NCBI GenBank assembly: GCA_026770705.1
Contig: JANJGN010000392.1
Coordinates: forward strand, 186,001-250,000
Direction: 5' to 3'
DNA from: Isurus oxyrinchus
Taxonomy: Eukaryota
DNA: 64,000 nt
The notes beneath the pieces were generated by a model that did not search any database, was not told where the DNA came from, and saw only the letters and a program-made list of their open reading frames with translations. The translations under genes and the position numbers were made by a program. Of the stretch, positions 15,973-32,396 are shown one piece after another (the first letter of the stretch is position 1; each line of letters starts with the position of its first letter).

Positions 15973-16473
15973 TTTCGTGATTTATCATTGACAAACGGGC
16001 GACGATAGTCCCAGGAATAGGTCACAAACGTTTATTCGAACAGCTGCAAGGAAAGAACCACCTCAATGCAGCTTGAGATAGCGCTCTGCTAAATTACAAG
16101 GGTTTCACATAATTATACTTCAATGATCACGTACATCCCTGGCATCAGTTGCATCCCACTCTTCACCCAGTTGGAGAAATCCTCTTCTATCTAAGCTGGG
16201 ACCACTTGTCTTTCACCTACCTGTAGAAGAGCACACTTAATCTTAAATAGTTTCCAACCTAATTCTCCAGCCTGACTCCCCAATCACCCAAACTATCGTT
16301 TTCTTAATTAGTTCATGTGTATTATGGCTTCCAGGGCTTTGCTGCTGATAGCAATTCTTGAGGATTTACGAAGTTCATGGAGTTTAACTTTTACCGTTTG
16401 CTTTACTCTTTTGTGCTGGCATACCTGTAGATTCAAATTTAAGGATATTATTCTCTTATAATGAATTCTCATG
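15973..16473 (-). repeat. 3' LTR of env-only element
   Basis: Shares blocks with 19455-19911, e.g. ctgctaaattacaa, ctggcatcag, cttctatctaagc, tacctgt.gaagagc.cacttaatc; inner boundary approximate. Confidence 0.75.
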
Positions 16474-16719
16474 TTTTTTTTTCCCCTCTAACCGTCTTGC
16501 CACCACCCCCACCTTTAGCCCTTGGCAAAGAGGGGTACTCTCCGTTCCTTTAAGAAGCGCCGCCAATTAATGCTGACCAACCTCCAACTTTGGATTGTAG
16601 AAGATCTGGTCAGATCATTTGTATCGTCTGGCCCTTCAGGACGCTGGCTTAAAAACTTCTTCTCCGAATGTTAAAAATCCACGAGCGCTATATCTTCTGT
16701 GACATTCGGTTCCGATGAA

Positions 16720-18250
16720 TCAAGTATATATAAATAATATCCGGTGAATCACACATAGGGCGTGGGAGATAATCCGAATCCACCAGCGTATTTGTCCCTT
16801 TGTGATCCAATTACACCAGCACCATGCAGAGAAACCACTTTGTTCGATATCCTCTTGTAGTGTCCCAAATATTTGCTGAACCATTTTATGAATCGCGGAA
16901 AACTGATCTGGTAGGGAATTAAATAGAACAAATGGTTAAATTAATGTTTTAGCGTATCCTTAATGCTTTCCTTTACCTGAACAGTAGTCGTTATTAAGTT
17001 ATATATTTCGGCCAGTTTCACTTTCCCTAACCATGCTGGCGCTTGCACAAGCAAGCACACTGTATGATTGTGAATGGGGCATATCCGCTTGCTCCCATAT
17101 TGGATCTTTTGCTGTCACAAGGTAATACAAAATCTCCCATTCCCCACGTGTGCCCCATGGCCCATTTCATTCCGAGCTCACTTGGTTACAGTTGTACAAT
17201 TTTGTTGCCGCTTTATATGCACACCTTGCTTTTTTGCCTCATATATTAAATATGTACATAAAACTGTTGCTTTCTGTATATTACACCCTTCTAATATTGT
17301 GCTACATATATTCCCTTCTATGTCTGCTGCATGCGGCGGAATGTTATGGTACCTAATATAGTGACCCCCACTCCTTATCTCCCCTTATCTTCTCCATGCA
17401 TTAATCTTTCGGTTGTTAACATAGTTATATCAGTTATCATTGTGACAATATCATTTGGCATATTTTTTCAATATTATTTCAAACTTCATGCTGTGTTCAC
17501 TGTTAAACCTCTGAGCTGGATACCAGTCAAGTCATGACCATCATGTAGTGAAATATAAAATTAATTTTCATTAGTTAACCATAAACGAACATTAATCAGT
17601 CTTAAATTCTCTCGGTGTTTTCCAATGCCCAGCATCCATAGCTGCTACAAACAACATTTCAGTTTGCATCATCTAAAATCTGTTTTACTATACCGATCAG
17701 TTTATTGATAGTCCAAGCATGACCTTCGTGCACGGTAGCCAGGTTTTGGATTAATAGTGTTATGTCTTGGTCTGTGTTTAATTGGGCATTATGAATTCCC
17801 TGTCCCAGTTCTAAGATTTCCTTAAGCCTGGAGTTCAAGGTCCGAAACTTCAGATCAACGGCTGCCAGATCAATCGACTGAACCATTGACGTAACTAAAC
17901 ATATCAGATCCCTGACACCTCTGCCCCCAATCTGAAGAAAACCACTGCTACAATTAATAAAGCTTGCAGAATCTGAATTAGGGACAATTGTTGTAAAAAA
18001 TCGTGAAAAAAGAAAATTCCCTTTTGAGAACTTTATCACGAAACAAATTTCAAAATGTTAACCTTAATTATCAGTGTAATTAACAGGATCAAAATTAGTA
18101 TTACCTCTTTCTCATGTGTATTGATGTTTATGCAAATTAAATGCTCCATATGTTTATCAACCCATTGTTCATCTTTGATAGCATGCACGTTATTTAGAAG
18201 TAAACTCTTAAAGGTCACCGCACTTAACTTCGAAAGACTTTTCAAAATTC
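16720..18250 (-). pseudogene. env: Decayed class I viral fusion glycoprotein (env) with Cys-rich ectodomain and C-terminal TM
   Basis: Hand translation across stops and frameshifts: RGVR|DL cleavage-like site (17911-17922); heptad-like SIDLAAVDLKFRTLNSRLKEILE..INKLIGIVKQIL; Cys-rich HYIRYHNIP..CSTILEGC..VLC..NCT..AHVGNGRFCIT..YG..CPIHNHTVC; TM-like WWIRIISHALCVIHRILFIY (~16725-16785). Confidence 0.65.
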
Positions 18251-19433
18251 AACTCGCTGTGCTTTTTGGATGCAGACTTCCATTCCTATTTAATTCATCA
18301 CTTCAAAATGAATCCCGTTTTATCCATTGGAGCCAACTAGACCTTTTGATTATGCCTTTTGATTTTAAACTCGTATGAGCTAATGTAACTCGTATGTATC
18401 AAACCCAAACATTTCAATTAAAAGCAAACCATTTTGTAGCTTTCAAATACCTTCGAAGTACGATTTTTGCGATAAATCTCGAATCAAACCTAATCCTCAA
18501 ATGTTTGTAATGTTTTTGTACACTTTTCTTCAATCTGATCTGGGGTGTCAACTCTTTAAAGTTGGTCTACTAACACAAATGACAATTTAAGGAAGGGAAC
18601 ACGTTAAAGCTCACATGGAAATGCTTCCTTGCTCACAAACTGACATCTCTTAACAAGTGTGCATTTATGTTGCTGTATCCTTAGCTTAACGTCCTAAAAT
18701 TCTCATAATCTATACGAAACCTCAGATAGCCGAGGGGGAATAAAGGAAAACTTGAAGGCTCCACCAATAGGGGCAATCAAACTGGCTGAAGCACCCATTT
18801 CCTCTAGCTCCAGCACGTTATTGCTCATTAGTCCACCTATGGCTGCCCCCACTCTCTCTCTCCCTCTTCAGCACAAGCAGTTCTTGTGACGTAGATCAAT
18901 ACATTTATTTATTGTGAAATAAAATTCAGTAGTGGAATTTCTGTGTCCCAATCATCCTCCCATATGTTCTTGATTATTATTGACCATTCTTTCTCTATGG
19001 ACCACGTAATGGAGTCCGCGGATCTCCTGTCGAGTTCCATAGCACTAACCAGTTTTGCCGAGAGCATTGTACTTCTTTGTATCTGCACAAATAATTCATT
19101 TGCCTCTGACTAGTTAGTTACTCACGCTTTAATTAGGGGTCTGGGCCCACTGCCCGGTTTCGGTTGTGTTTATATTTCACACGGTAACCCGCATGTACTG
19201 CTCTACCTCACGCTTTGGAGCGTGGTCATGGCGGCCTCGGCACCGCTAGTCCGCCAGGGCGGCTCTTGCCTTCTACCTCAGCACGTATTTTCCGTGTCAG
19301 GTACTGAGTCCTCCGACCGATCCTCTGATATTCGGCTGGATTATTCTCGGTTAGGCTTCCTGCACTAACGGCTGGTGGTAAATACAATATACACACCCAC
19401 TATGCAGAGCCTTCCCGAGGGACAGTTTGGAGT

Positions 19434-19451
19434 CTCCTGCCAACTATGCCA
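19434..19451 (-). promoter_or_regulatory. Primer-binding site, tRNA-Ser(AGA-type)
   Basis: Minus TGGCATAGTTGGCAGGAG vs the complement of the vertebrate tRNA-Ser(AGA) 3' end TGGCGTAGTCGGCAGGAT; two of the three mismatches are CpG transitions; lies 3 nt from the LTR end. Confidence 0.8.
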
Positions 19452-19454
19452 AAC

Positions 19455-19911
19455 TGTTGTATTATCTTTGACAAGCGGTCCAAAGGAAGCTCAGCTACAG
19501 TTCACGATCGTTTTTTCGAGCAATTGCAATTAGAGAACCAAGTCGAGATGGCTTGAGAAAGCACGCTGCTAAATTACAATTTCAGCATACTTTTGCTTTG
19601 CTGATCCCTTCATCTCTGGCATCAGGCATTCCCAATTTATAGCCAGACAGACACCTACCCTTCTATCTAAGCAAGGATCATCTGTCCTTTCCTTACCTGT
19701 TGAAGAGCCCACTTAATCCATGTTATTGCCATCCTCTGAATCCAGTCCGGCTCCCAAAGACTTTCTGTTGATTGCAGTCCCTAAGGCTGGGCAAGGTTCA
19801 ATGGTCATCTTTATCTCTTCATCTGCTTGGTATCGCTGGCTGCCTGGAACTTTTAAGTAATTAATTCCCTTTCATTATATTATTACTTATTTACCTGAAC
19901 ATTCTATCACA
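19455..19911 (-). repeat. 5' LTR of env-only element
   Basis: Minus strand begins TGTGA and ends CAACA; immediately upstream of the PBS. Confidence 0.8.
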
Positions 19912-19949
19912 ATAAATTATTACATTTACCCGGTCTGGATGGGATGTAT

Positions 19950-23357: not shown

Positions 23358-24197
23358 TGTGGAAGATTAAAATACATCTACGGGACAACTAAGGGTTAAA
23401 CGGTTGAAATCATATTGGAATACTACAGCACAGTTCCCTCATCTGTTCTAGAAGGCACACCTGCAGCTGCCAGCTAATTGAGCAGGAAAGGAGAAAAGGA
23501 TTATCATATTGAAGATTCCTAGAATCCTTGAGGCAAGGCTAGGATGTCAGCCCCCAACACAAAGAGACAGGATCAAGCAATGGTCATCTGTTCTCTAGAA
23601 TGTCCACTCACTAGCACTAAAGATAATGTCAAGCATGGTTATCTATTCTCAGTCTCACTTTTTATCACCAGATGGACTCCTCCTAAGATCCGGGGTAGTC
23701 ATAAACTAGAATAGAATAATTGTGTGGAAAAATTCAGAAGGTCTAGCAGCATTAGCAGAGAAGAAAAGTGTTGACGCTTTGAGTCCTCAAGACCCTTCAA
23801 CGGAACTGGAAGTTCTGTTAAAGGGTCATGAGGACTCGAAACATCAATTCTTTTCTTCTCCGCCGATGCTGCCAAACCTGCTGTGCTTTTCCAGGTAACT
23901 CTGTTTTTGTTTTGGATTTCCAGCATCCGCAGTATTTTTTTGTTTTTACATTAGAATAATTGTGTGCCAAAGATAATGGTTCTCATTATAATTAATTATT
24001 GAAGGTTAGGCAGTTTTATCACCTTCTTGGTCTATGATATGTACGACTGTTACTATAACTATGTGTGTACTCTGATGCTGGCTCAGAGTGTCAGCTAGCT
24101 CCATTGTATTTAACTGGACTGTCTGTGATATCACGATTAAATAAGGGATTCTGAGACAACCCTCCTGGGTCTATTTGTTCACTCCGATTCTGCAACA
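23358..24197 (+). repeat. ERV 5' LTR (with a 225-bp secondary insertion)
   Basis: TGTGGAAGA...GCAACA; aligns with 31798-32396. Confidence 0.92.
23727..23951. mobile_element. Palindromic non-autonomous element (Penelope-derived/MER6-like hairpin, by inference) inserted in the 5' LTR
   Basis: ~80-bp inverted arms around 'gaactggaagttc' (~23803-23815); exact 15-bp flanking duplication TAGAATAATTGTGTG (23712-26, 23952-66); absent from the 3' LTR. Confidence 0.75.
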
Positions 24198-24200
24198 AAT

Positions 24201-24218
24201 TGGTGACGAGGATGGGAT
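24201..24218 (+). promoter_or_regulatory. Primer-binding site, tRNA-Ser(GCT)
   Basis: TGGTGACGAGGATGGGAT vs the complement of the tRNA-Ser(GCT) 3' end TGGCGACGAGGATGGGAT (one CpG transition). Confidence 0.9.
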
Positions 24219-24541
24219 CCAACTGAAGACTAGGAGCCTCTTAAGTTGAAGAGGAATTTGAAATTCTTGGTTGGATCCCTAAAAACAAAGAACCTTCTGG
24301 AAAAAGTGAGGAATACCTCTCCCAAGTTAGAGAGAGTGCATACTGCATGCTAACAGAAAGGGGGATTGCAGTCAATCAGCATCCTAGCTGAGAAGTGGAC
24401 AGTGTGTAAAATGGTAGCTATTGGCCAAAGAGACTTGCGTGACCACAGAATCGGAGGACGTGTTAAGGAACTCTTAAACACCGGTGAGCACATAGGGTAG
24501 GAAAGGCGCCACGCTGTTAATTGTGCTTCCTTTTCAGATAA

Positions 24542-26290
24542 ATGGGAGGACCCAGCAGCAGAGCGGGCTCTGCCACTCCCCCTGCCTCTCTAAGTAATAA
24601 GAACATACAGAAACTACAACTGAAAGGGGGACCCTTAAAGATGGGTAAGAGAACGGAAAAACAAAGGATAATGGTAACCAAAGCTCATCAGCAGGTAAGA
24701 GATCCGCTTGTCGATCCGGGTTCACCAGCCAACGTTGTAATGTGAGAAACGGGCGATGACCGGTATGCTGTGCCTTTTAGCAGTGACTTGTACGGGTGGA
24801 CGCGGGGAGAATGGCCGTATGGGGGATGTTTTAAAATACCCCTTATTCAGGTCTGGTGGGATGGGGTAGCTAATGGGGCTGGAGATCGCAACTGGGATCT
24901 TGACCATATGATGGGTTGTTTTAGTAAATGGATGGAGGTTGCAAAATGCCACCAACCCACTATATTATAGAATAAAATGGAAAATCAGACCAAAGGTACT
25001 GAAAAGATGATAGACCAAAACGTGGCCCACGAGACTGTTTATGTAGATGCGCCCTCCACTGCACCCTCTGCATCTCCACCGTATCCCCTCAGCACCGACC
25101 AACTGGGACCTTACACCTTGTATCCAAGACTCGCGGCATCTGGCAACCTTCACTGGCACCCCCTTCCTGAACCTTTAACAGATGAACTTATAGAAATATC
25201 CTCGGCCTGAAGCCAATCCAATGGGGATGTCATGGTTAGCCGATGCCAGTTTAGGAGAGGGAGCAGGAGCGGGACCAGCAAATAATGAACCGGATAGTAC
25301 TCAATCCGACCTCGAATCCCAAATTAGGGAAGTCGACGTTGGTAGAGCAATGACGTTTCTCTGGCAAAGTACACAGGACAATCTACCAAGAAGGTAGCGA
25401 CAGCGGCTGACTCAACCTCTCCTGTATTTCAGAATCCTAAAATTATGATTGGTGACGGCTATACCCAAACCATGGACTCCAGCGGAAGCTTGAGCTATGA
25501 TAGCCAAAGCGCCCGATCCTATAAAACGCCCAGCTGCATTCCTAAATTGGCTGGAACAGATATATGAATTTTACCAGCCCCTTCCGGGCGATTTGCAAGC
25601 TTTATTAAAATTTGATTATGGTAGCTCCTGGGCACCTTACAAAACACCAATCCGGTGCCACCAGGGGAGAATGCAGACTGGCAGGAAAACGCTGAGCTAG
25701 CAGAGGGTGGGAATGAAAGTTTAAAACATTGGCTGCAAGGCAGGGACAAAGCTGCTATTATGGCAGCAGCGCAAAGATACAGGGACATGGGGGAAGGAAC
25801 TCGGTGCCTGCAAAGGAAAGAGGAAAGCACCCCTGATTTTTTGAACCGATTGCATAATACTTGGGAGGAGTATGTGGGCGTTTCCCTTAGCAACGTACTC
25901 TGAGCTATACAAACAGTGCTGAATTGCATGCTCGCCCAACATGTCCAATCTTTCAAAATGTGAATCCTAAACTGGCAAACTTTGAAATGGTCTGAAACAA
26001 CCACTGCCTTGGTTAATATGGAACGAGAGGGTCTATTTGTTAGCAACAGGGAGGGTTCCAAACAGCAGAAAAACAATTTTCTTCTTCAAGGTCAGAATAA
26101 ACGTATGGGAAAAGTAAGAAGCCAGAGAGGAGATAAATCCCTTGACACGTGTCACAAATGCGGAAAAAGGGGACACTGGGCTAGAGAATGTTGATCGGTT
26201 CCCCCCTAGGGAACCTGTTGGGTCCCATGGCCAGCAGGCTGTGGCGATTCCCTCCTTTACTTTCAACAAGAAAAGGGGTGCCCAGGGGAG
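24542..26290 (+). pseudogene. gag: ERV gag (disrupted)
   Basis: PSAP/PPY-like late-domain region (PSTAPSASPPYP), capsid-like PDP.K.P..F..WL, MHR-like QRKEESTPDFLNRL, zinc knuckle CHKCGKRGHWAREC; 5' start uncertain. Confidence 0.85.
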
Positions 26291-26293
26291 GCT

Positions 26294-26700
26294 ATGATAC
26301 AGGGAGCAGTTATATCACTTTCGCAAGACTCTGGAGCGCACCCTATGGTAATCCTTAGAATAGGAGACACACATTTACGAGCCTTGGTGGACAATGGCGA
26401 TACCCTTTCCTCAGTACCTCCCTCCCTGGGATTACCCCTTAGTCAGAAAAGGGTAGTAACCGCAGGAGTGGCAGCCGTTCCCTTGTTGGAACCTCCATCT
26501 AAGCGAGTTGCCTTGTCACTGGAAGACAAACGTGTGGAAGAAACTCTGTTACTTTCAAAAACCACTCCTTTACACTTGTGGGGAGGCCAGACTCTGTGTA
26601 AATTAGGGGTCACTATTTACTTCATGCCACAAGGCATGTACATGGAAGTGCCCAGACCCCAAACTCACCACTTCACATTCTTGCTCCTTGCCTTTGAGGA
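26294..26700 (+). pseudogene. pro: ERV aspartic protease
   Basis: ALVDNGDTLS (LVDTGA) and TPLHLWGGQTLCKLG (NLLGRDLL.KL). Confidence 0.85.
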
Positions 26701-26729
26701 CGCCCCTGAGACTAAGTCTGAAACAATTT

Positions 26730-27200
26730 TATATGTTGGCATCTTGAAGATAATGCTTACATGGCAGGGATGGGCCGATTGTGGCAAGAACTTGATATAT
26801 TACCTAATGCTCCACCTATTAAAACCCTAAAAAGCTTGATACAGGTAGTGCTGAATTACTCCCGTCTGCATTGTACCACATGGTATACAGTGAAAGATAA
26901 CCCCGAATATCATCAAAAGGCCAGCATTCTCATAGGAACAGTGACTCCCATCTGTCCTGATCCCTACCTTTACTTTGCCGAGGCGGGCTTGGGCATACTG
27001 GGACCGCAGTGCAGCAGCCTCTGTTTCAAGAAAACTCTGAGTCTGTGCCCCATCTGATCCTTGCAATTCGGCCCCCTTTCAGTCACACCATATACGTCCT
27101 ATGATAAAAAGGCTTCAACAGATCCCTACCTCTGTATGCCTTGGGTCAGTTGAATGGTTCGGATCTGTGGAGGTTAGGATCCATCTCCCAGGGATTTCTG
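26730..27200 (+). pseudogene. 2H-phosphoesterase-like domain between PR and RT
   Basis: LHCT at 26866-26877 and, after a frameshift, LFQ..SVPHLILA at ~27021-27066; the two Hx(T/S)-type motifs are ~60 codons apart. Confidence 0.6.
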
Positions 27201-27299
27201 GGGACTCCTGTAAATTAATTGACCCCAAAGCCAAATTTCAACAACAACAGCCCCCTGAGCAATCTGACTTTATATGTCCCTATGCGTTAGACGTTGCCG

Positions 27300-30200
27300 A
27301 GGGTGGTCTGTGGGCTTTGCATAAAAATCATGTCGGTCGAGTGCTCTCCGCCCCAGATCATTGTGTTAAGCTGTGATAAAATGTTGTCCTGCCCTGCGTT
27401 CAGCAGTATCGGTTAACCACTGATGCTGAGACAGGCATAGCTCCTGTTGTAAATGCTCTGCTTCATCAAGGGGTTCTTAAATCCACCGTTAGCCACTGTG
27501 ACACGCCCATATTACCAAAACCTAAAATTGGACAGCCAAACGAATGGTGTTTTGTACAGGAGTTGCGAGCATAAATTGCATTGCTGTCCCCATAGCACCA
27601 GTAGTACCCAATGTAAATGTAATCCTGTCCTCCATCCCGACTACCGCCATGCTTTATACCGTGATAGAACTATGCTCTGCTTTCTTTTCTATCCCGCTCC
27701 ATCCCCACAGTCAGTATTTGTTCACTTGTACGAATAAAGAGCCGCAATATACCTGGACGATGTTTCCCCAGGGATACACTGAAAGTCCTGCTGTATACAC
27801 TGCTGCATTAAATGGAACTTGGACGAATGTTATTTAACTGGGAACTCCACACTTATACAGGATGCCAATGATCTTTTAGTGGCCTCATCTACACTAAAAG
27901 ACTGTGTGAAAGACTCAACTACTTTACTTCAATTCCTAGCAACGAGAGACCATAGAGTATCAGAGTAAACTGCAGTTCTGCCAGCCACTAGTTCTGTATC
28001 TGGAATTCACTTTAAAAAAGGGACTCATCAGATCGGACCAGAATGGCTACAAGCCATCCTGTGGATACCTGCGCCTAAAACAAAGAAAGAGATTATTTCC
28101 TTCCCAGGTATAGTGGGCTATTGCAGACAGTGCATTCCCGATTACTGTCTATATGATGCTGTCCTCTGTGGAGCTACGATGAAGGAAGCACCTTTGTTTG
28201 TCCAGTGGACTTCAAAACAGGAGGCATCGTTTAAGACTTTCAAAGCAGCTGTAACCACGGCCCGGGCTCTCGGGTTACCCAACTATCTGTGTCCCTTTCA
28301 GATGCACTTTTGCAAAAGGAAGGGATTCGCCACCGGAGTTCTTTCTCAGACCATAATGGAGGTAGGCGACCGACCACTTGTTATTCTATGGCTCTTCCTG
28401 CTGTGGTGATGGGGATGCCTGCTTGTCTCCATGCTGTTGCAGCCGCGGCCACAATGGTTGAGAAGTCGTTGCCTGTTAGTCCTCGATCACCCTTGTGAGG
28501 TATGAGTGCCCCAAGCCATCATGCTGCTGGTAGATTCTGCTGCTACACAACATTTTACTGCCTCATGACGCACGGGGTATGAAGTTATTTTATTATCGCA
28601 TCACAACTACACGTATCGCCTATCGCCGGCCATTAACACCACTAGTTTTTCTCCCAAGTCCCCAGAAGAGGTGGAGCATGACTGTATTGCCATGGTCGAG
28701 CAGTCCATTTCTTTTAGAAGGGATTTGCAGATGGAGCTACTTCGGGACACAGATGTTATTTCTTACACCGACGGCTCCTCTCAGCGACCTAGATTCTATT
28801 TGCTCATCACCGATTAAGCTGTTTTGAGTCAATGCCACATCATAGAAGCTTACACACTACCCGCTGGCACTTCAGCCAAGGCAGCAGAACTGTTTGCTCT
28901 AACCAGTGCTTGTATCCTGGCCAAAGTTTTAACGGCCAATATTTATACCGATTCCCGATATGCCTTTGGTGTTGTCCAAGATTTTGGTGAAATATGCAAA
29001 AATCGGGGTTTTATTACATCAACAGGTTGGTCTATTAAATATTCCCAGCTCGTGCTGAACCTCCGAGAAGTGATTCAATTGCCGAAATGTCTGGCGGTTA
29101 TTAAATGTGAAGAACACACTAAATTGACTGATGATGTCTCTGTAAGAAATGCTCGCACTGACCAAGCAGCGAAAGAGGTCGCAGCTGTGCAAACCCCCCA
29201 TGTTCCAAATCGAGCCCCCTTCCTGCTCTGGAGTCTGCTCAGTTGCAGGCAGCCCAACAAAATGGTACGAAGCAGGAAACACGGGCATGGGAAATGGCAC
29301 AATGCTATTACAAAAAGGGTTTTTGGTTCCATTCGGATGGTCGACTGGTTTGTCCTCGAAGTCTGTTTTTTGCCCCCGTGTCGCCTAATTCATGCACAGA
29401 CACACATGGGGAATGAGGGGAGGCAGCATGCAATAAAGCAAGAAATGATTGTACCTGTTATCACTCCAACTATCCAAAGAATCACTCGTTCTTGCTTAAC
29501 CTGCTAGCAGAATAATAAAGGGACAGCAGCAGCTAAGTACAATCACCTGCCAATGCCTGTAATGCCTTTTGAAAACTGGAAAATTGATTTCGTACATATG
29601 CCCCTGGCCTCAGGGTATAAGTATTTATTGTTAATAGTAGATACGTTCACCCGATGGGTTGAAGCCTACCCTACACGAAGGGGTGATGCACGAACATTAG
29701 TGAGAATATTGTGGAAAGAACTGATACCTAGGTACGGAATACCTATGGGAATAAACAGTGATCGAGCAACTCACTTTACTGGGAACATAGTGAAGGATTT
29801 AGTGCAGAACATGGATTTTCAATGGATGTTGCATATTCTGTACCAGCCACAGTCCTCAGGAATAGTTGAAAAGGTAAATGGGGAACTAAAGAACACCTTA
29901 TCTAAGTTTCTCAGGATACTAAACTTTCGTGGCCCGAAGCGCTCCCAGTAATGCTCTTTGCTACGCGAAACTGAAAGAATAGAGTTACTGGATTAACACT
30001 CCATGAGGACCTCATGGGACAAACCATGATGATTGGAGCCCAACCTCCTGCTTGTGCAGAGAGATTAGTCTTAATTTGGAATGATGAACAGTCCCTGGCT
30101 TACTCCCAGACAATTTGTAAAACAGCAACTGAACTACATGAGATAGTTAGGCTGGCTCAGGCAACCGTGGGCTATGCACCAATACACACCTTTCAGCTGG

Positions 30201-30360
30201 GTGATCAAGTGTATGTAAATCATTTAAACAAAGATTTTTTTTTCTCCTAGGTGGCAAGGACCCTATCTGTTAGTGCTGACCACTCGAACGGCCCTGAAGG
30301 TTAAATGGAAGGAAGATTGGATCCACGTCACTCGTTGCAACAAACATTGTCCAGCAGTTG
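27300..30360 (+). pseudogene. pol: ERV pol RT-RNaseH-IN (disrupted)
   Basis: TPILPKPK..WCFVQELRAIN, IELCSAFFSIPL, FPQGYTESP, LIQDANDLL (decayed YVDD), YTDGSS, AELFAL, NIYTDSRYAFGVV, H..THMG..CLTC, IDFVHMP/SDRATHFT/SGIVEKVN, WQGPY. Confidence 0.95.
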
Positions 30361-30379
30361 TTTAACGATTTCTAATAGT

Positions 30380-31775
30380 GTATCAGCTTGTGTAATGTAT
30401 CAGATACGTTATTTGCTATATGTTATCCTTTTGCTATTTTTTATCGAGTGTATCTAAAGGATTGCCACCCTGGCACTTTTTTGTCTTTATGCCGCACCTA
30501 TGCTGGAAAAGTCAGACAGGGTGTCTGTTGGATACGTGCCCAGATTCCCAACCATGGGGGTGAGTCAAGCACCTATCAGGCAAAACCCCTGACTGAGGAA
30601 GAAAGAACGGATCTCACAAACTTTCTTATCCTGTCAGATGATGCAGAACCCAATATGTTTAGAGGGTGGTTCCTTCGCTCTCCCCCTGCTAAGTAATGGA
30701 ACTACACAAAGCATGGGATAAGAATCAGGCCCCCTCCAGTACCAATAAACGCCACCTGTTGGTGTTCGACTCTTGCAACCGGTACCTATAACCTGGGAAA
30801 TAGTAGTTGCCCAAACACAATTTCTAATAGACCTGGTAGTTATGATCCTAAAAATCCTTTACATGGTACTTACTGGGTTTGTGGAGAAAAAGCATATCCC
30901 TGGCTGCCTGGGATGCCACAATTCTCTTCCCTTTTTAATCGAAATACCGATAATTTGGTCAAGGGCACTATCACGCCCACCTGGAGTGGTTGCTGCTGCC
31001 TACCATATTTGAATCCATACCTCCGCTATATAAGTAAGTTAGATATTAACACACATCTGCGTCTGTATCTCCGTGGCATCTCGGAGTCCAAATGATTTTG
31101 GATGATTCGCATCCACTCATACGGGACTGCGTGTAATTCCCAAGAGGCTATCAACCATGCGGCTGCGCTTGAAAAATTTGCCATTTCAACAGCTGATGCT
31201 TTTATTGAGACACAGGAACAGATTTCAGCTGCCAGTACTGAAATGATAGCCCTATGCCTAACAGCTCTGCAAAATAGAATGGCCCTTGACTTCCTCCAAG
31301 CTGAAAAGGGCAGTGTTTGTGCCATGATAGGTTCAGAATACTGCACTTATGTGCCTTATGTTTCTGAGAATATTACTAACCTGGGGCAGCACGTTTTAGA
31401 TAAAGTGCAAGAAATAAAGAAAGTTGGGGAAAGATTGAGAATTTTTGTAACAAGGATTCCTAGTGGGCTGCAGTAATGGGGTGGTTGTGGAAGTTGGCTG
31501 CTGTATGATTTAATTGGATTAGTTTTAATTGATGTAAGAGGGTGTTTTGCATGTGCTACTTTGAACATTTGCTGTGTCCACTGTTTTAATGGAGCTATGA
31601 ATGGAGCCACCACTGGATTAGGAGGAACTCCAATCATTCCACAATTGATGCGCACTGGCCACAGCAAAAACGATTGGTGGGTAGAAAAAGTTTACCCTGC
31701 CATGGATCGGCCTTTTCCTTATGGTTATGAGCGCACTTATGATAATGAATATACTATTCATCATTGGTATTAATC
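30380..31775 (+). pseudogene. env: ERV gamma-type env (disrupted)
   Basis: VCWIR (CWIC), WSGCC.L, immunosuppressive domain LQNRMALDFLQAEKGSVCAMIGSEYC (CX6CC-like), hydrophobic TM at ~31495-31580. Confidence 0.9.
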
Positions 31776-31797
31776 TACAAGGTTAACAAGGAGGGAT

Positions 31798-32396
31798 TGT
31801 GGAAGAATAAGATACATCTACAAGACAACTAAGGGTTAAGCGGTTTAAATCATAGTGAAAAACTGGGCACATTTCCCTCTTTTGTTGCCGCAGGCACACC
31901 TGCAGCTGCCCGGTAATTTAGCAGGAAGGGAGAAAAGGATTCTGTTAAACAAGTTTCCTTTAATCCATGAGGCAACGCTAGGATGTCTGCCCCCAACACA
32001 AAGAGACAAGATCAAGCAATGGTCATCTGTTCTCAAGAATGTCCACCCCCAGGCAATAAAGATAGGGACAAGCAGGGTAATCTATTCTCTGTCTCACTTT
32101 CTATCTCCAGCTGCTACGATCCTGGGTAGTCATGAACTAGAATAGAACAATTTTGTACTGTATGCCAAAGATAATGGTTGTCAATGTAATTAATTATTGA
32201 AGGTTAGGCAGTTTTATCACCTTCATGCTCTTTGATATGCGCGACTATTACTATAACTATGTGTGTACGCTGATGCTGGCTCAGAGTGTCAGCTAGCTCC
32301 ATTATATACTACTCGGCTTTCCGTGATATCACAATTAAAAAAGGGTTTCCGAGATGAAGTTCCTGCATCTGAGTGTTCACTCCGATTTCCGTGATA
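31798..32396 (+). repeat. ERV 3' LTR
   Basis: Preceded by PPT AACAAGGAGGGA; starts TGTGGAAGA; by eye roughly 80-85% identical to the 5' LTR. Confidence 0.92.

Follow-up and report, generated by a model that had tools for sequence, protein, structure and literature searches.

The window, that is, the whole stretch of 64,000 nucleotides from Isurus oxyrinchus analysed here, contains an LTR element at 15973-19901, which lies on the minus strand, as do all of its parts, and which is composed of two LTRs, a tRNA-Ser primer binding site (PBS) and an env remnant and carries no pol. The 5' LTR (19455-19901) starts with TGTTCAGG and ends with ACAACA; it was delimited by alignment with the LTR starts of the family, by BLAST against family LTRs and by its 72% identity to the 3' LTR (15973-16493), which in turn was assigned by repeat comparison, BLAST and alignment with family LTRs. 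The direct repeats described in the initial annotation were borne out at 71-73% identity (71.9% and a K2P of 0.355 over 295 aligned bases), with a global alignment score of 194 versus −73 ± 15 for 100 shuffles. Likewise, the proposed Ser PBS is real, since 19434-19451 matches the 3' end plus CCA of the genome's own tRNA-Ser(AGA) in 15 of 18 bases. The polypurine tract (PPT) exists as a decayed run at 16494-16516, in the position of the family PPT directly before the LTR start, whereas the more obvious purine run, at about 16475-16490, already forms the start of the 3' LTR. The ATAAA target site duplication (TSD), on the other hand, was a misreading: alignment with family LTRs places the start of the 5' LTR at 19901 and not at 19911, so that ATAAA at 19912-19916 lies 10 bases outside the element. 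The family TSD is 4 bp long and exact in three of eight loci scored; the flank at the 3' end of duplicates of the window insertion reads TATAT, not TTTAT, in 7 of the 8 that retain this end, and no TSD is recoverable for the window copy.

The interior is not env only, as had been thought, because about 1 kb of it is shared non-coding filler. The PBS is followed by a leader with a short trace into the gag start region (18970-19433, mapping to positions 438-897 and 1080-1152 of the full-length element L041) and by the 5' half (17949-18969) of an AT-rich non-coding stretch of about 2 kb, which replaces gag-pol in a pol-less subfamily and has the same start there. At 17945-17960 lies the junction of a private deletion, which removes the remaining filler together with an integrase remnant and the signal peptide of env, and at 17893-17910 the junction of an in-frame env deletion that is the same at eight independent loci. 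As the initial annotation had it, pol is missing: the interval from leader to env shows no gag, pro, RT, RNase H or integrase homology to a full-length family member.

The decayed env remnant (16600-17955) comprises HR1, a Cys-rich F core, HR2 and a TM segment, and tblastn aligns it at 42-63% identity with an open copy of the family, in line with the heptad, Cys-rich and TM parts originally recognized. The cleavage site read from RGVR is the deletion junction itself; the RxKR of the family and the first half of its fusion peptide are absent, as the shared deletion has taken out the family Env from about residue 78 to 297 (net 657 bp in six of the eight loci). This deletion was inherited, and the signal peptide was lost privately. 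An exact-motif search retrieved the deletion junction at 4 sites and the undeleted motif at 76, both of which are lower bounds in decayed copies and are not comparable with each other. The window env decayed neutrally: its 392 codons contain 6 stops and 14 frameshifts, and its private N/S ratio is 1.06. Rather than providing a function, it is a broken passenger, and the window copy as such is unremarkable, decayed non-coding DNA. We offer no absolute date, since the K2P of the LTR pair, at the substitution rate that PMC4422223 assumes for sharks (2.2e-10 per site per year), translates into an impossible age of about 800 My.

Elsewhere in the window, the gamma env noted about 12 kb away belongs to a class I-type ERV at about 23.4-32.4 kb with the ISD peptide LQNRMALD. 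Among the 90 other window frames, Pfam identified a single RT domain, at about 21.8-22.1 kb, and no domain of a host gene.

Full-length relatives and their envelope

The initial annotation had proposed to look for gag-pol elements with the same LTR and PBS. Indeed, the same genome holds complete three-gene proviruses with both (8920, 8956 and 8807 bp), and the translations of L015, L041, L047 and L057 display the order gag-pro-pol-env including tether and RNase H. The family has two Cys-His knuckle-like motifs in Gag, YVDD in RT and an Env of 727 aa. It is from this gag-pro-pol-env family of 8.8-9.0 kb that the window element derives by deletion. The proposed likeness to lokiretroviruses did not hold for the polymerase, because the family RT carries LPQGFH, as is typical of snakehead retrovirus (SnRV), and not the PFGY of Loki; by eye, its RT and RNase H motifs (YTWTRLPQGFH and SAQVAELVAL) are those of SnRV. 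The best PDB matches of the RT are foamy virus (137 bits), MLV-type (116), HIV-2 (79) and Ty3 (76). In a 31-row RT tree, which includes no named SnRV or Loki sequences and whose backbone among retroviral classes is not resolved, the family stands with class I/III RTs and apart (100/98) from P0018, which bears the Loki motif. By its motifs the family RT is probably SnRV-like; by motifs and tree position it is not lokiretroviral.

The envelope was said to resemble paramyxovirus F, and fold searches with a model of an open family Env agree with this prediction. Foldseek matched the predicted structure to RSV F with an E value of 3.7e-9, and a VIA fold comparison of model residues 212-601 gave Z 12.1 with an rmsd of 5.8 Å over 305 aligned residues; 124 of 996 chains reached Z ≥ 8, and among the 50 matches listed all are F proteins. 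The model, which was derived from a natural open copy, is modest (mean pLDDT 60.5, pTM 0.38), and its residues 1-200 have a pLDDT below 50. In BFVD the top match was A0A384ZVF2 (928 aa), and feline foamy Env was a weak match (E 5.6e-5); the Env of a walleye epsilonretrovirus is represented in BFVD as well. Homologous Env proteins are present in other sharks and in frogs. The family Env has RxKR, a fusion peptide, a coiled coil and a TM segment, and Atlas features point weakly, with low recognition value, to F likeness. The suggested check for a fusion-protein fold succeeded with the open family Env, and that for Fusion_gly (PF00523) came back blank: hmmscan against Pfam found neither PF00523 nor another F match in the window fragments, the open Env or 14 homologues, and phmmer and hmmsearch of PDB detected no F homology, which is thus visible only in the Atlas features and the fold searches. 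The absence of gamma env motifs was confirmed, as the open family Env contains no CW[ILV]C or CX6CC, and by eye no ISD. The family Env is accordingly predicted to adopt the paramyxovirus/pneumovirus F fold behind an extra N-terminal region of about 200 residues. An SnRV-like backbone would thus be combined with a fusogen of the F type (class Ib), so that such an Env would not be confined to foamy viruses and lokiretroviruses and gives no ground for calling an element 'loki'.

The search for an intact env frame under selection, likewise suggested at the outset, led to an old provirus (G000:C40) whose env spans 727 codons with 0 breaks, next to a pol with 27 lesions in 733 codons. Of 61 candidates that were scored, no other matches over the full length without a break. 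The private N:S of this env is 15:18, compared with 2690:894 across 93 further copies (Fisher p 3.5e-4), a sign of purifying selection in an otherwise dead provirus, and the gene is a candidate for a domesticated F-type fusogen that is likely kept by the host. DNA of Organism B has the same C40 insertion, with 2 of 290 bases different in one env piece versus 108 of 3004 outside env; a fraction of only 0.37-0.39 of the C40 env words is shared there, and one contig has an uncompensated 1-base insertion. None of the sequencing runs listed for the C40 env is recorded as RNA. Putative RNA contigs, about 90% alike, were set aside as paralogues, which count neither for nor against expression. If expressed, the C40 env would be a co-opted F-type fusogen; the open-access texts found in our literature search contain no report of a co-opted shark env or F-type fusogen.

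A probable satellite subfamily without pol

Lack of pol is not a peculiarity of the window locus, a possibility that the initial annotation had left standing. In a de-duplicated census, for which an exact env motif served as the anchor and which therefore misses env-less forms and copies like that of the window, 58 of 63 loci are pol-less and pro/RT/RH is found in 5. Family leader plus filler without pol characterizes 38 of the 63, and 30 of these 38 resume at one and the same integrase position, which provides the multiple independent loci that had been asked for. First-look candidates in G000 (1524 for env, 826 for filler, 81 for RT) are not copy numbers. The pol-less loci occupy independent sites and have their own LTR pairs, LTRs being nearest to their own partner in 38 of 52 cases, and relatives of the window element lie on other chromosomes. 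The 5' start of the filler is identical in 37 of 39 elements, and filler is absent from the full-length elements L041, L047, L052 and L015. It contains no ORF over 82 aa, shows no codon periodicity and no tblastx match to a full-length copy, and yielded nothing near the gathering score in Rfam. The filler recurs in elements with other LTRs, and this movement of a non-coding core between LTR families points to a transferable cis element.

The largest pol-less subgroup inherited a 4-bp env frameshift (31 of 35 copies). By comparison, 16 of the 38 elements span the whole env and share no lesion across a majority, for which reason the founder of these env-complete elements may have had a working env. 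Pol-less and pol-bearing sequences are interleaved in the env tree. Shared env variants have an N/S of 0.22, which we ascribe to helper ancestry because the subgroup with the frameshifted env shows a similarly low N/S.

The subfamily displays structural traits of non-autonomous satellites of the ETn/VL30 type, namely no coding for replication enzymes, retained cis signals and many independent insertions. We are confident that the window holds a dead, old copy of this pol-less subfamily, which was likely packaged, reverse-transcribed and integrated by helper Gag-Pol and which has its env as a broken passenger. The helpers were likely the complete tRNA-Ser-primed, SnRV-like proviruses. The dominance of pol-less loci together with the shared breakpoints and the shared filler makes copying in trans likely, by analogy with ETn/MusD or VL30. 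Of the two options first considered, satellite or deletion derivative, each is partly right, since a member of a satellite lineage underwent a further private deletion. A recombinant would have exchanged gag-pol for filler and kept LTR, PBS, leader and PPT as cis signals, and would then have spread within germ cells on helper proteins. The env and LTR sequences of the satellite would have been renewed as reverse transcription repeatedly switched templates with helpers, and successive internal deletions would have generated a nested series of 3.7-7.6 kb, with the 3.9 kb window copy among the shortest.

In a bipartite system, pol-less elements would give Env to env-less gag-pol partners and receive Gag-Pol in return. 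All sampled S-LTR pol-less forms, most of which were found via env, do retain the 3' part of env, the two large deletions in env mostly preserve the reading frame, shared variants of the 16 elements that span env have an N/S of 0.23, and there are a few gag-pol copies whose env is absent or deleted (L042-L046, L053, L005). However, these copies are few, L042-L046 resemble duplicates of one insertion, complete three-gene proviruses have an env of their own, and N/S is equally low where the frameshift was inherited. Neither the window lineage, whose env lacks RxKR and half of the fusion peptide and in the window also the signal peptide, nor the largest pol-less subgroup has retained a functional env, which speaks against the role of envelope supplier initially assigned to the element, and we consider such a system improbable.

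It is even less probable that an ordinary provirus suffered a one-off deletion after insertion, with no satellite lineage involved. The exact 3.9 kb form does occur only at the window insertion, which was later duplicated together with its flanks, and at its segmental duplicates, as these make up all of the 8 of 40 scored matches that cross the private junction; but independent loci on other chromosomes have two of its three rearrangements, namely the one at the filler start and the deletion in env. A one-off deletion is hence refuted for these two and holds only for the last, private one. Two independent insertions, or a recombinant of two elements, that mimic a single one would be just as improbable. 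The window LTRs are only 72% identical to each other and 79-81% to other copies, from which a recombination after insertion would be conceivable, and there is no TSD. Against this, dispersed relatives have a collinear order of LTR-PBS-leader-filler-env-PPT-LTR, the env and the two LTRs all sit on long branches, as for one old or fast-evolving insertion, and the segmental duplicates have the same LTR divergence (67-73% alike). We therefore retain the reading as a dead satellite copy. In a wider picture, towards which we lean only slightly, an SnRV-like lineage of cartilaginous fish carries an F-fold envelope, the C40 env was domesticated by the host into an F-type gene with a syncytin-like or receptor-blocking role, the window element is what remains of one member of a swarm of satellites from the same family, and the non-coding core was passed among at least three unrelated LTR families.

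Comparison with known systems

SnRV has a tRNA-Arg PBS, whereas that of the family is tRNA-Ser; RT and RNase H motifs are common to the family and SnRV-like ERVs (clade Huo, class III-related). According to the accessible part of PMC12193657, SnRV measures 11.2 kb and has a 136-residue Env tail, compared with 8.9 kb and a short Env tail in the family. SnRV-like ERVs already occur in a cartilaginous fish, as lineage I of CmiERV in the elephant shark (PMC4422223; PMC6001957), and the available portion of PMC11089739 assigns cartilaginous-fish ERV RTs mostly to clade III. An F-fold Env in SnRV-like or epsilon retroviruses is not stated in the open-access literature we found.

The RT of lokiretroviruses forms the sister clade of all other retroviruses, their integrase is close to CGIN1, and some members have an smc gene. 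Their Env, which is related to paramyxovirus/pneumovirus F, has a signal peptide, an RxKR site, a fusion peptide, a coiled coil and a TM segment (PMC7947760). The family shares this Env plan, whereas its RT lacks the Loki PFGY and groups with retroviruses; one supplementary row of the same paper records no Loki in three chondrichthyan genomes. Foamy virus Env is described, in the accessible part of PMC11468914, as a class Ib fusion protein that shares the F-protein core; the family Env is predicted to share this core and is shorter. Spumaviruses have no Cys-His knuckles as far as the excerpt of PMC8278194 goes, in contrast to the family Gag. The same excerpt presents XtERV-S, from an aquatic vertebrate, as an ERV of class III type whose PBS is tRNA-Ser(AGA/TGA) and of which many copies have internal deletions, all of which resembles the family. 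XtERV-S differs by a gamma-type Env (CWIC, ISD, CX6CC), YIDD, a dUTPase, the lack of a zinc knuckle and a 5-bp TSD; in the family, Env is of the F type, the RT has YVDD, knuckles are present and the TSD measures 4 bp.

For ETn/MusD and VL30/MLV, the accessible part of PMC6466679 reports that non-coding LTR elements outnumber the coding helper, which they need for retrotransposition or co-packaging. The pol-less elements of the family outnumber their coding relatives as well. Unlike ETn/VL30, they retain integrase and env remnants, form a nested deletion series and have their filler under unrelated LTRs, and all copies seen are old and decayed. With these differences, the subfamily would be a cartilaginous-fish counterpart of the ETn/VL30 satellite systems.

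Structure and losses of the window element

The window corresponds to C392:186001-250000, and its element, which lies on the minus strand, is a real but dead satellite copy. Its two direct repeats are located about 3.48 kb apart with an identity of 71-73%, and their global alignment scored 194 compared with -73±15 for 100 shuffles, which bears out the two LTRs described in the initial annotation, as does the match of 15 of 18 PBS bases to the genome's own tRNA-Ser(AGA) for the tRNA-Ser PBS. Alignment with family members places the starts of the 5' and 3' LTRs at 19901 and 16493, respectively, so that on one side a gap of 10 bases separates the element from the ATAAA pair previously taken for the target site duplication (TSD). 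Since the family TSD is 4 bp long (exact at 3 of 8 scored loci) and most duplicates of the insertion show TATAT at the other flank, the TSD of the window copy is unconfirmed.

Like its pol-less relatives, the window copy has lost gag-pol and carries an AT-rich filler instead. An in-frame env deletion of about residues 78-297 additionally eliminated the RxKR site together with the initial half of the fusion peptide; its junction, which had been mistaken for a cleavage site, is found at 8 independent loci, one of them still pol-bearing. A private deletion at about 17950 took what remained of the filler, along with the integrase remnant and the signal peptide, and this junction is spanned by only 8 of 40 scored matches, all representing the window insertion or its duplicates. 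Across 392 codons, the env remnant has accumulated 14 frameshifts and 6 stops, and its private N/S ratio is 1.06.

This remnant yielded 41 matches (40 scored of 1524 first-look candidates). The closest (76-99%) are located on contigs C392, C402, C18 and C746, extend into the flanking DNA and are segmental duplicates of one insertion; dispersed relatives measure 3.7 to 7.7 kb. The insertion sits in an old segmental repeat (C18 0.2-1.5 Mb, C392, C402, C746) with two age layers of about 77% and 93-99%, and 90 window frames contained no host-gene Pfam domain. The window also harbors a class I (gamma/epsilon-type) ERV at 23358-32387 (plus strand) with protease, RNase H, integrase and the ISD peptide LQNRMALD, the LTR pieces of which are 83-86% alike.

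A pol-less subfamily and its envelope

The census was anchored on an exact 21-base env motif with 76 sites, 71 of which were covered by 70 loci (the other 5 sites are on small contigs), and removal of 7 segmental duplicates left 63 loci. Pro, RT and RH were present in 5 of these, whereas 38 comprised the family leader and filler without pol; 3 had the leader with the filler probe unmatched, and in 17, which are truncated, interrupted or chimeric, no family leader was detectable. The same integrase position is the resumption point in 30 of the 38 leader-plus-filler elements, and the filler 5' end is common to 37 of 39 elements, including the window copy. When the 52 LTRs of 26 elements were compared, 38 proved nearest to their own partner. 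In the filler (2.0 kb and 36% GC in locus L064), which is missing from four full-length-type copies, neither a long ORF nor codon periodicity was apparent, and at the protein level it matched nothing in the full-length copy. Based on the census structure, the shared breakpoints, the LTR pairing and the non-coding filler, this is likely a non-autonomous subfamily copied in trans, which is the mobilisation route the initial annotation had proposed.

Gag-pol elements with the same PBS as the window element, where tested, were found using pol DNA as query; these proviruses have the complete gag-pro-pol-env set and measure 8920, 8956 and 8807 bp (LTR pairs 92, 94 and 70% alike by BLAST, respectively). 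Loci L042-L046 (C44, C59, C213), which resemble duplicates of a single insertion, and L053 are family gag-pol derivatives without env.

The satellite had also been suggested to supply the envelope, which the results do not support. We consider it improbable that an env-complete pol-less subgroup had this role, even if the whole env is covered, without a majority lesion, in 16 of the 38 leader-plus-filler elements of the census, both large env deletions are mostly in frame, and the N/S of about 0.22-0.23 for variants common within pol-less groups would by itself suggest selection. However, a 4-bp env frameshift is inherited in 31 of 35 copies of the largest pol-less subgroup, in which N/S has the same value, and pol-less and pol-bearing sequences are interleaved in the env tree (variant set: 94 of 112 copies with a match; 16 duplicates were dropped and the remainder was too short). 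For these reasons, the low N/S of shared variants most plausibly reflects descent from functional helpers, or exchange with them, rather than selection on the satellite.

The 20 loci found with the filler divide into 6 with the family LTR, 6 with a second LTR type, 6 with a third and 2 in which all three are missing; BLAST showed no similarity between the three types. Since the filler also occurs under other LTR types, the 826 filler candidates do not all belong to the SnRV-like family. Loci of the second type (L124, L125, L132-L134, L136) have a Ser PBS, and their env-like remnant is a different one. Those of the third (L130, L137, L138, L140-L142, L080, L097) are chimeras in which an integrase of class I type and an env with CWIC follow, and their PBS may be of the tRNA-Gln type. 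Filler and integrase remnant occur together inside elements with unrelated LTRs, among which L127 is also listed. A frame at L132:6431-6760 (plus strand) resembles the cleavage site and fusion peptide of another F-like Env, with a weak profile match to the family Env (probability 16%, E 0.0016).

An unbroken env on contig C40

Locus L015 on C40 is an old provirus (LTR K2P 0.17) with an unrecognisable PBS and ruined gag-pol, which nevertheless carries an F-type env of 727 unbroken codons (L015:1452-3632, minus strand), a natural open frame with RxKR site, TM and a cytoplasmic tail shorter than that of the family. Over 733 codons, its pol shows 19 frameshifts and 8 stops; env has none, compared with 27 lesions expected at L015's own pol rate (P about 3e-12) and a median of 16 (minimum 6) in the other 93 copies. 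L015 was chosen post hoc; at the family median lesion rate and corrected for roughly 1500 loci, the probability of an open env is about 2e-4 (hand calculation). Private env changes (15 N : 18 S vs 2690 : 894 elsewhere, p 3.5e-4) show signs of purifying selection. Among 61 scored candidates, L015 was the sole full-length unbroken match, and since none of the rest exceeds 83% identity, a recent conversion from a young copy is unlikely.

DNA of another organism contains this insertion at about 96-97% identity; there, 2 of 290 bases are changed in one piece of env, compared with 108 of 3004 in the sequence outside it (p 0.005). However, only 0.37-0.39 of env words are common to both, which fits about 3% divergence and counts against a conserved env, and a 1-base insertion in env on one contig of this other organism counts against domestication. 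Judged by its sequence, the L015 env is a candidate domesticated gene.

Envelope fold and placement of the virus

Pfam and PDB sequence searches with the family Env gave no match; its 42 relatives at E <= 0.001 (protein representatives) include named shark and frog proteins. The nearest named homologues, together with the initial annotation, are what identifies the host as a shark. An AlphaFold2 model of the L015 Env (37-row alignment, mean pLDDT 60.5, residues 1-200 unreliable) resembles the F proteins of RSV, hPIV3 and henipavirus (Foldseek E 3.7e-9; Z 12.1 with an rmsd of 5.8 A over 305 residues). The family Env is thus predicted to have an F-type fold, i.e. the fusion-protein character assumed earlier is recovered by structure and not by the Pfam search. 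The best BFVD match is A0A384ZVF2, an unnamed protein of 928 aa; others include F proteins of mononegaviruses and baculoviruses as well as the Env of walleye epidermal hyperplasia virus and of feline foamy virus. As weak evidence, 18-85% of members in the top three Atlas clusters contain PF00523. Because walleye epidermal hyperplasia virus 1 Env matched with E 1.5e-8, epsilonretrovirus Env may also have an F-like region. Env pieces terminate an annotated F-box protein 15 isoform of a shark (P0002/P0003) and open a protein with a cadherin domain (P0065), reflecting either exonisation or annotation artefacts. Many full-length 677-aa distant homologues on large scaffolds of a frog (P0073 cluster) suggest that a related virus expanded there recently.

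The natural 243-aa family RT frame scored higher with foamy RT (137 bits) than with MLV-type (116), HIV-2 (79) or Ty3 (76) RT. Its motifs correspond to the SnRV and not the Loki rows in the alignments available from the PMC7947760 supplement, and a tree of 31 RTs, which took in no named SnRV or Loki sequence, placed it among other fish/shark retroviral RTs on the retrovirus side, split from a Loki-motif protein at 100/98. Both results speak against the lokiretrovirus membership considered initially. Cartilaginous fish are not among the Loki hosts named in the accessible part of PMC7947760, a supplementary row of which gives 3 cartilaginous-fish genomes with 0 Loki-positive, and the elephant shark carries SnRV-like ERVs according to the accessible text of PMC4422223. 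Further context is provided by parts of PMC6001957, PMC11089739, PMC12193657, PMC8278194, PMC13709493, bioRxiv 2023.10.26.564294 and bioRxiv 2024.03.17.585361.

The main weight of the finding lies in the predicted F-type Env on an SnRV-like backbone and in the candidate domesticated gene. An F-type Env is no proof of a lokiretrovirus, since the accessible part of PMC11468914 describes the same F-protein core in foamy Env, a likeness that the family Env shares by its predicted model. The probable non-autonomous subfamily of this shark family resembles ETn/MusD and VL30/MLV, which are likewise described as non-autonomous elements copied in trans in the sections available from PMC6466679.
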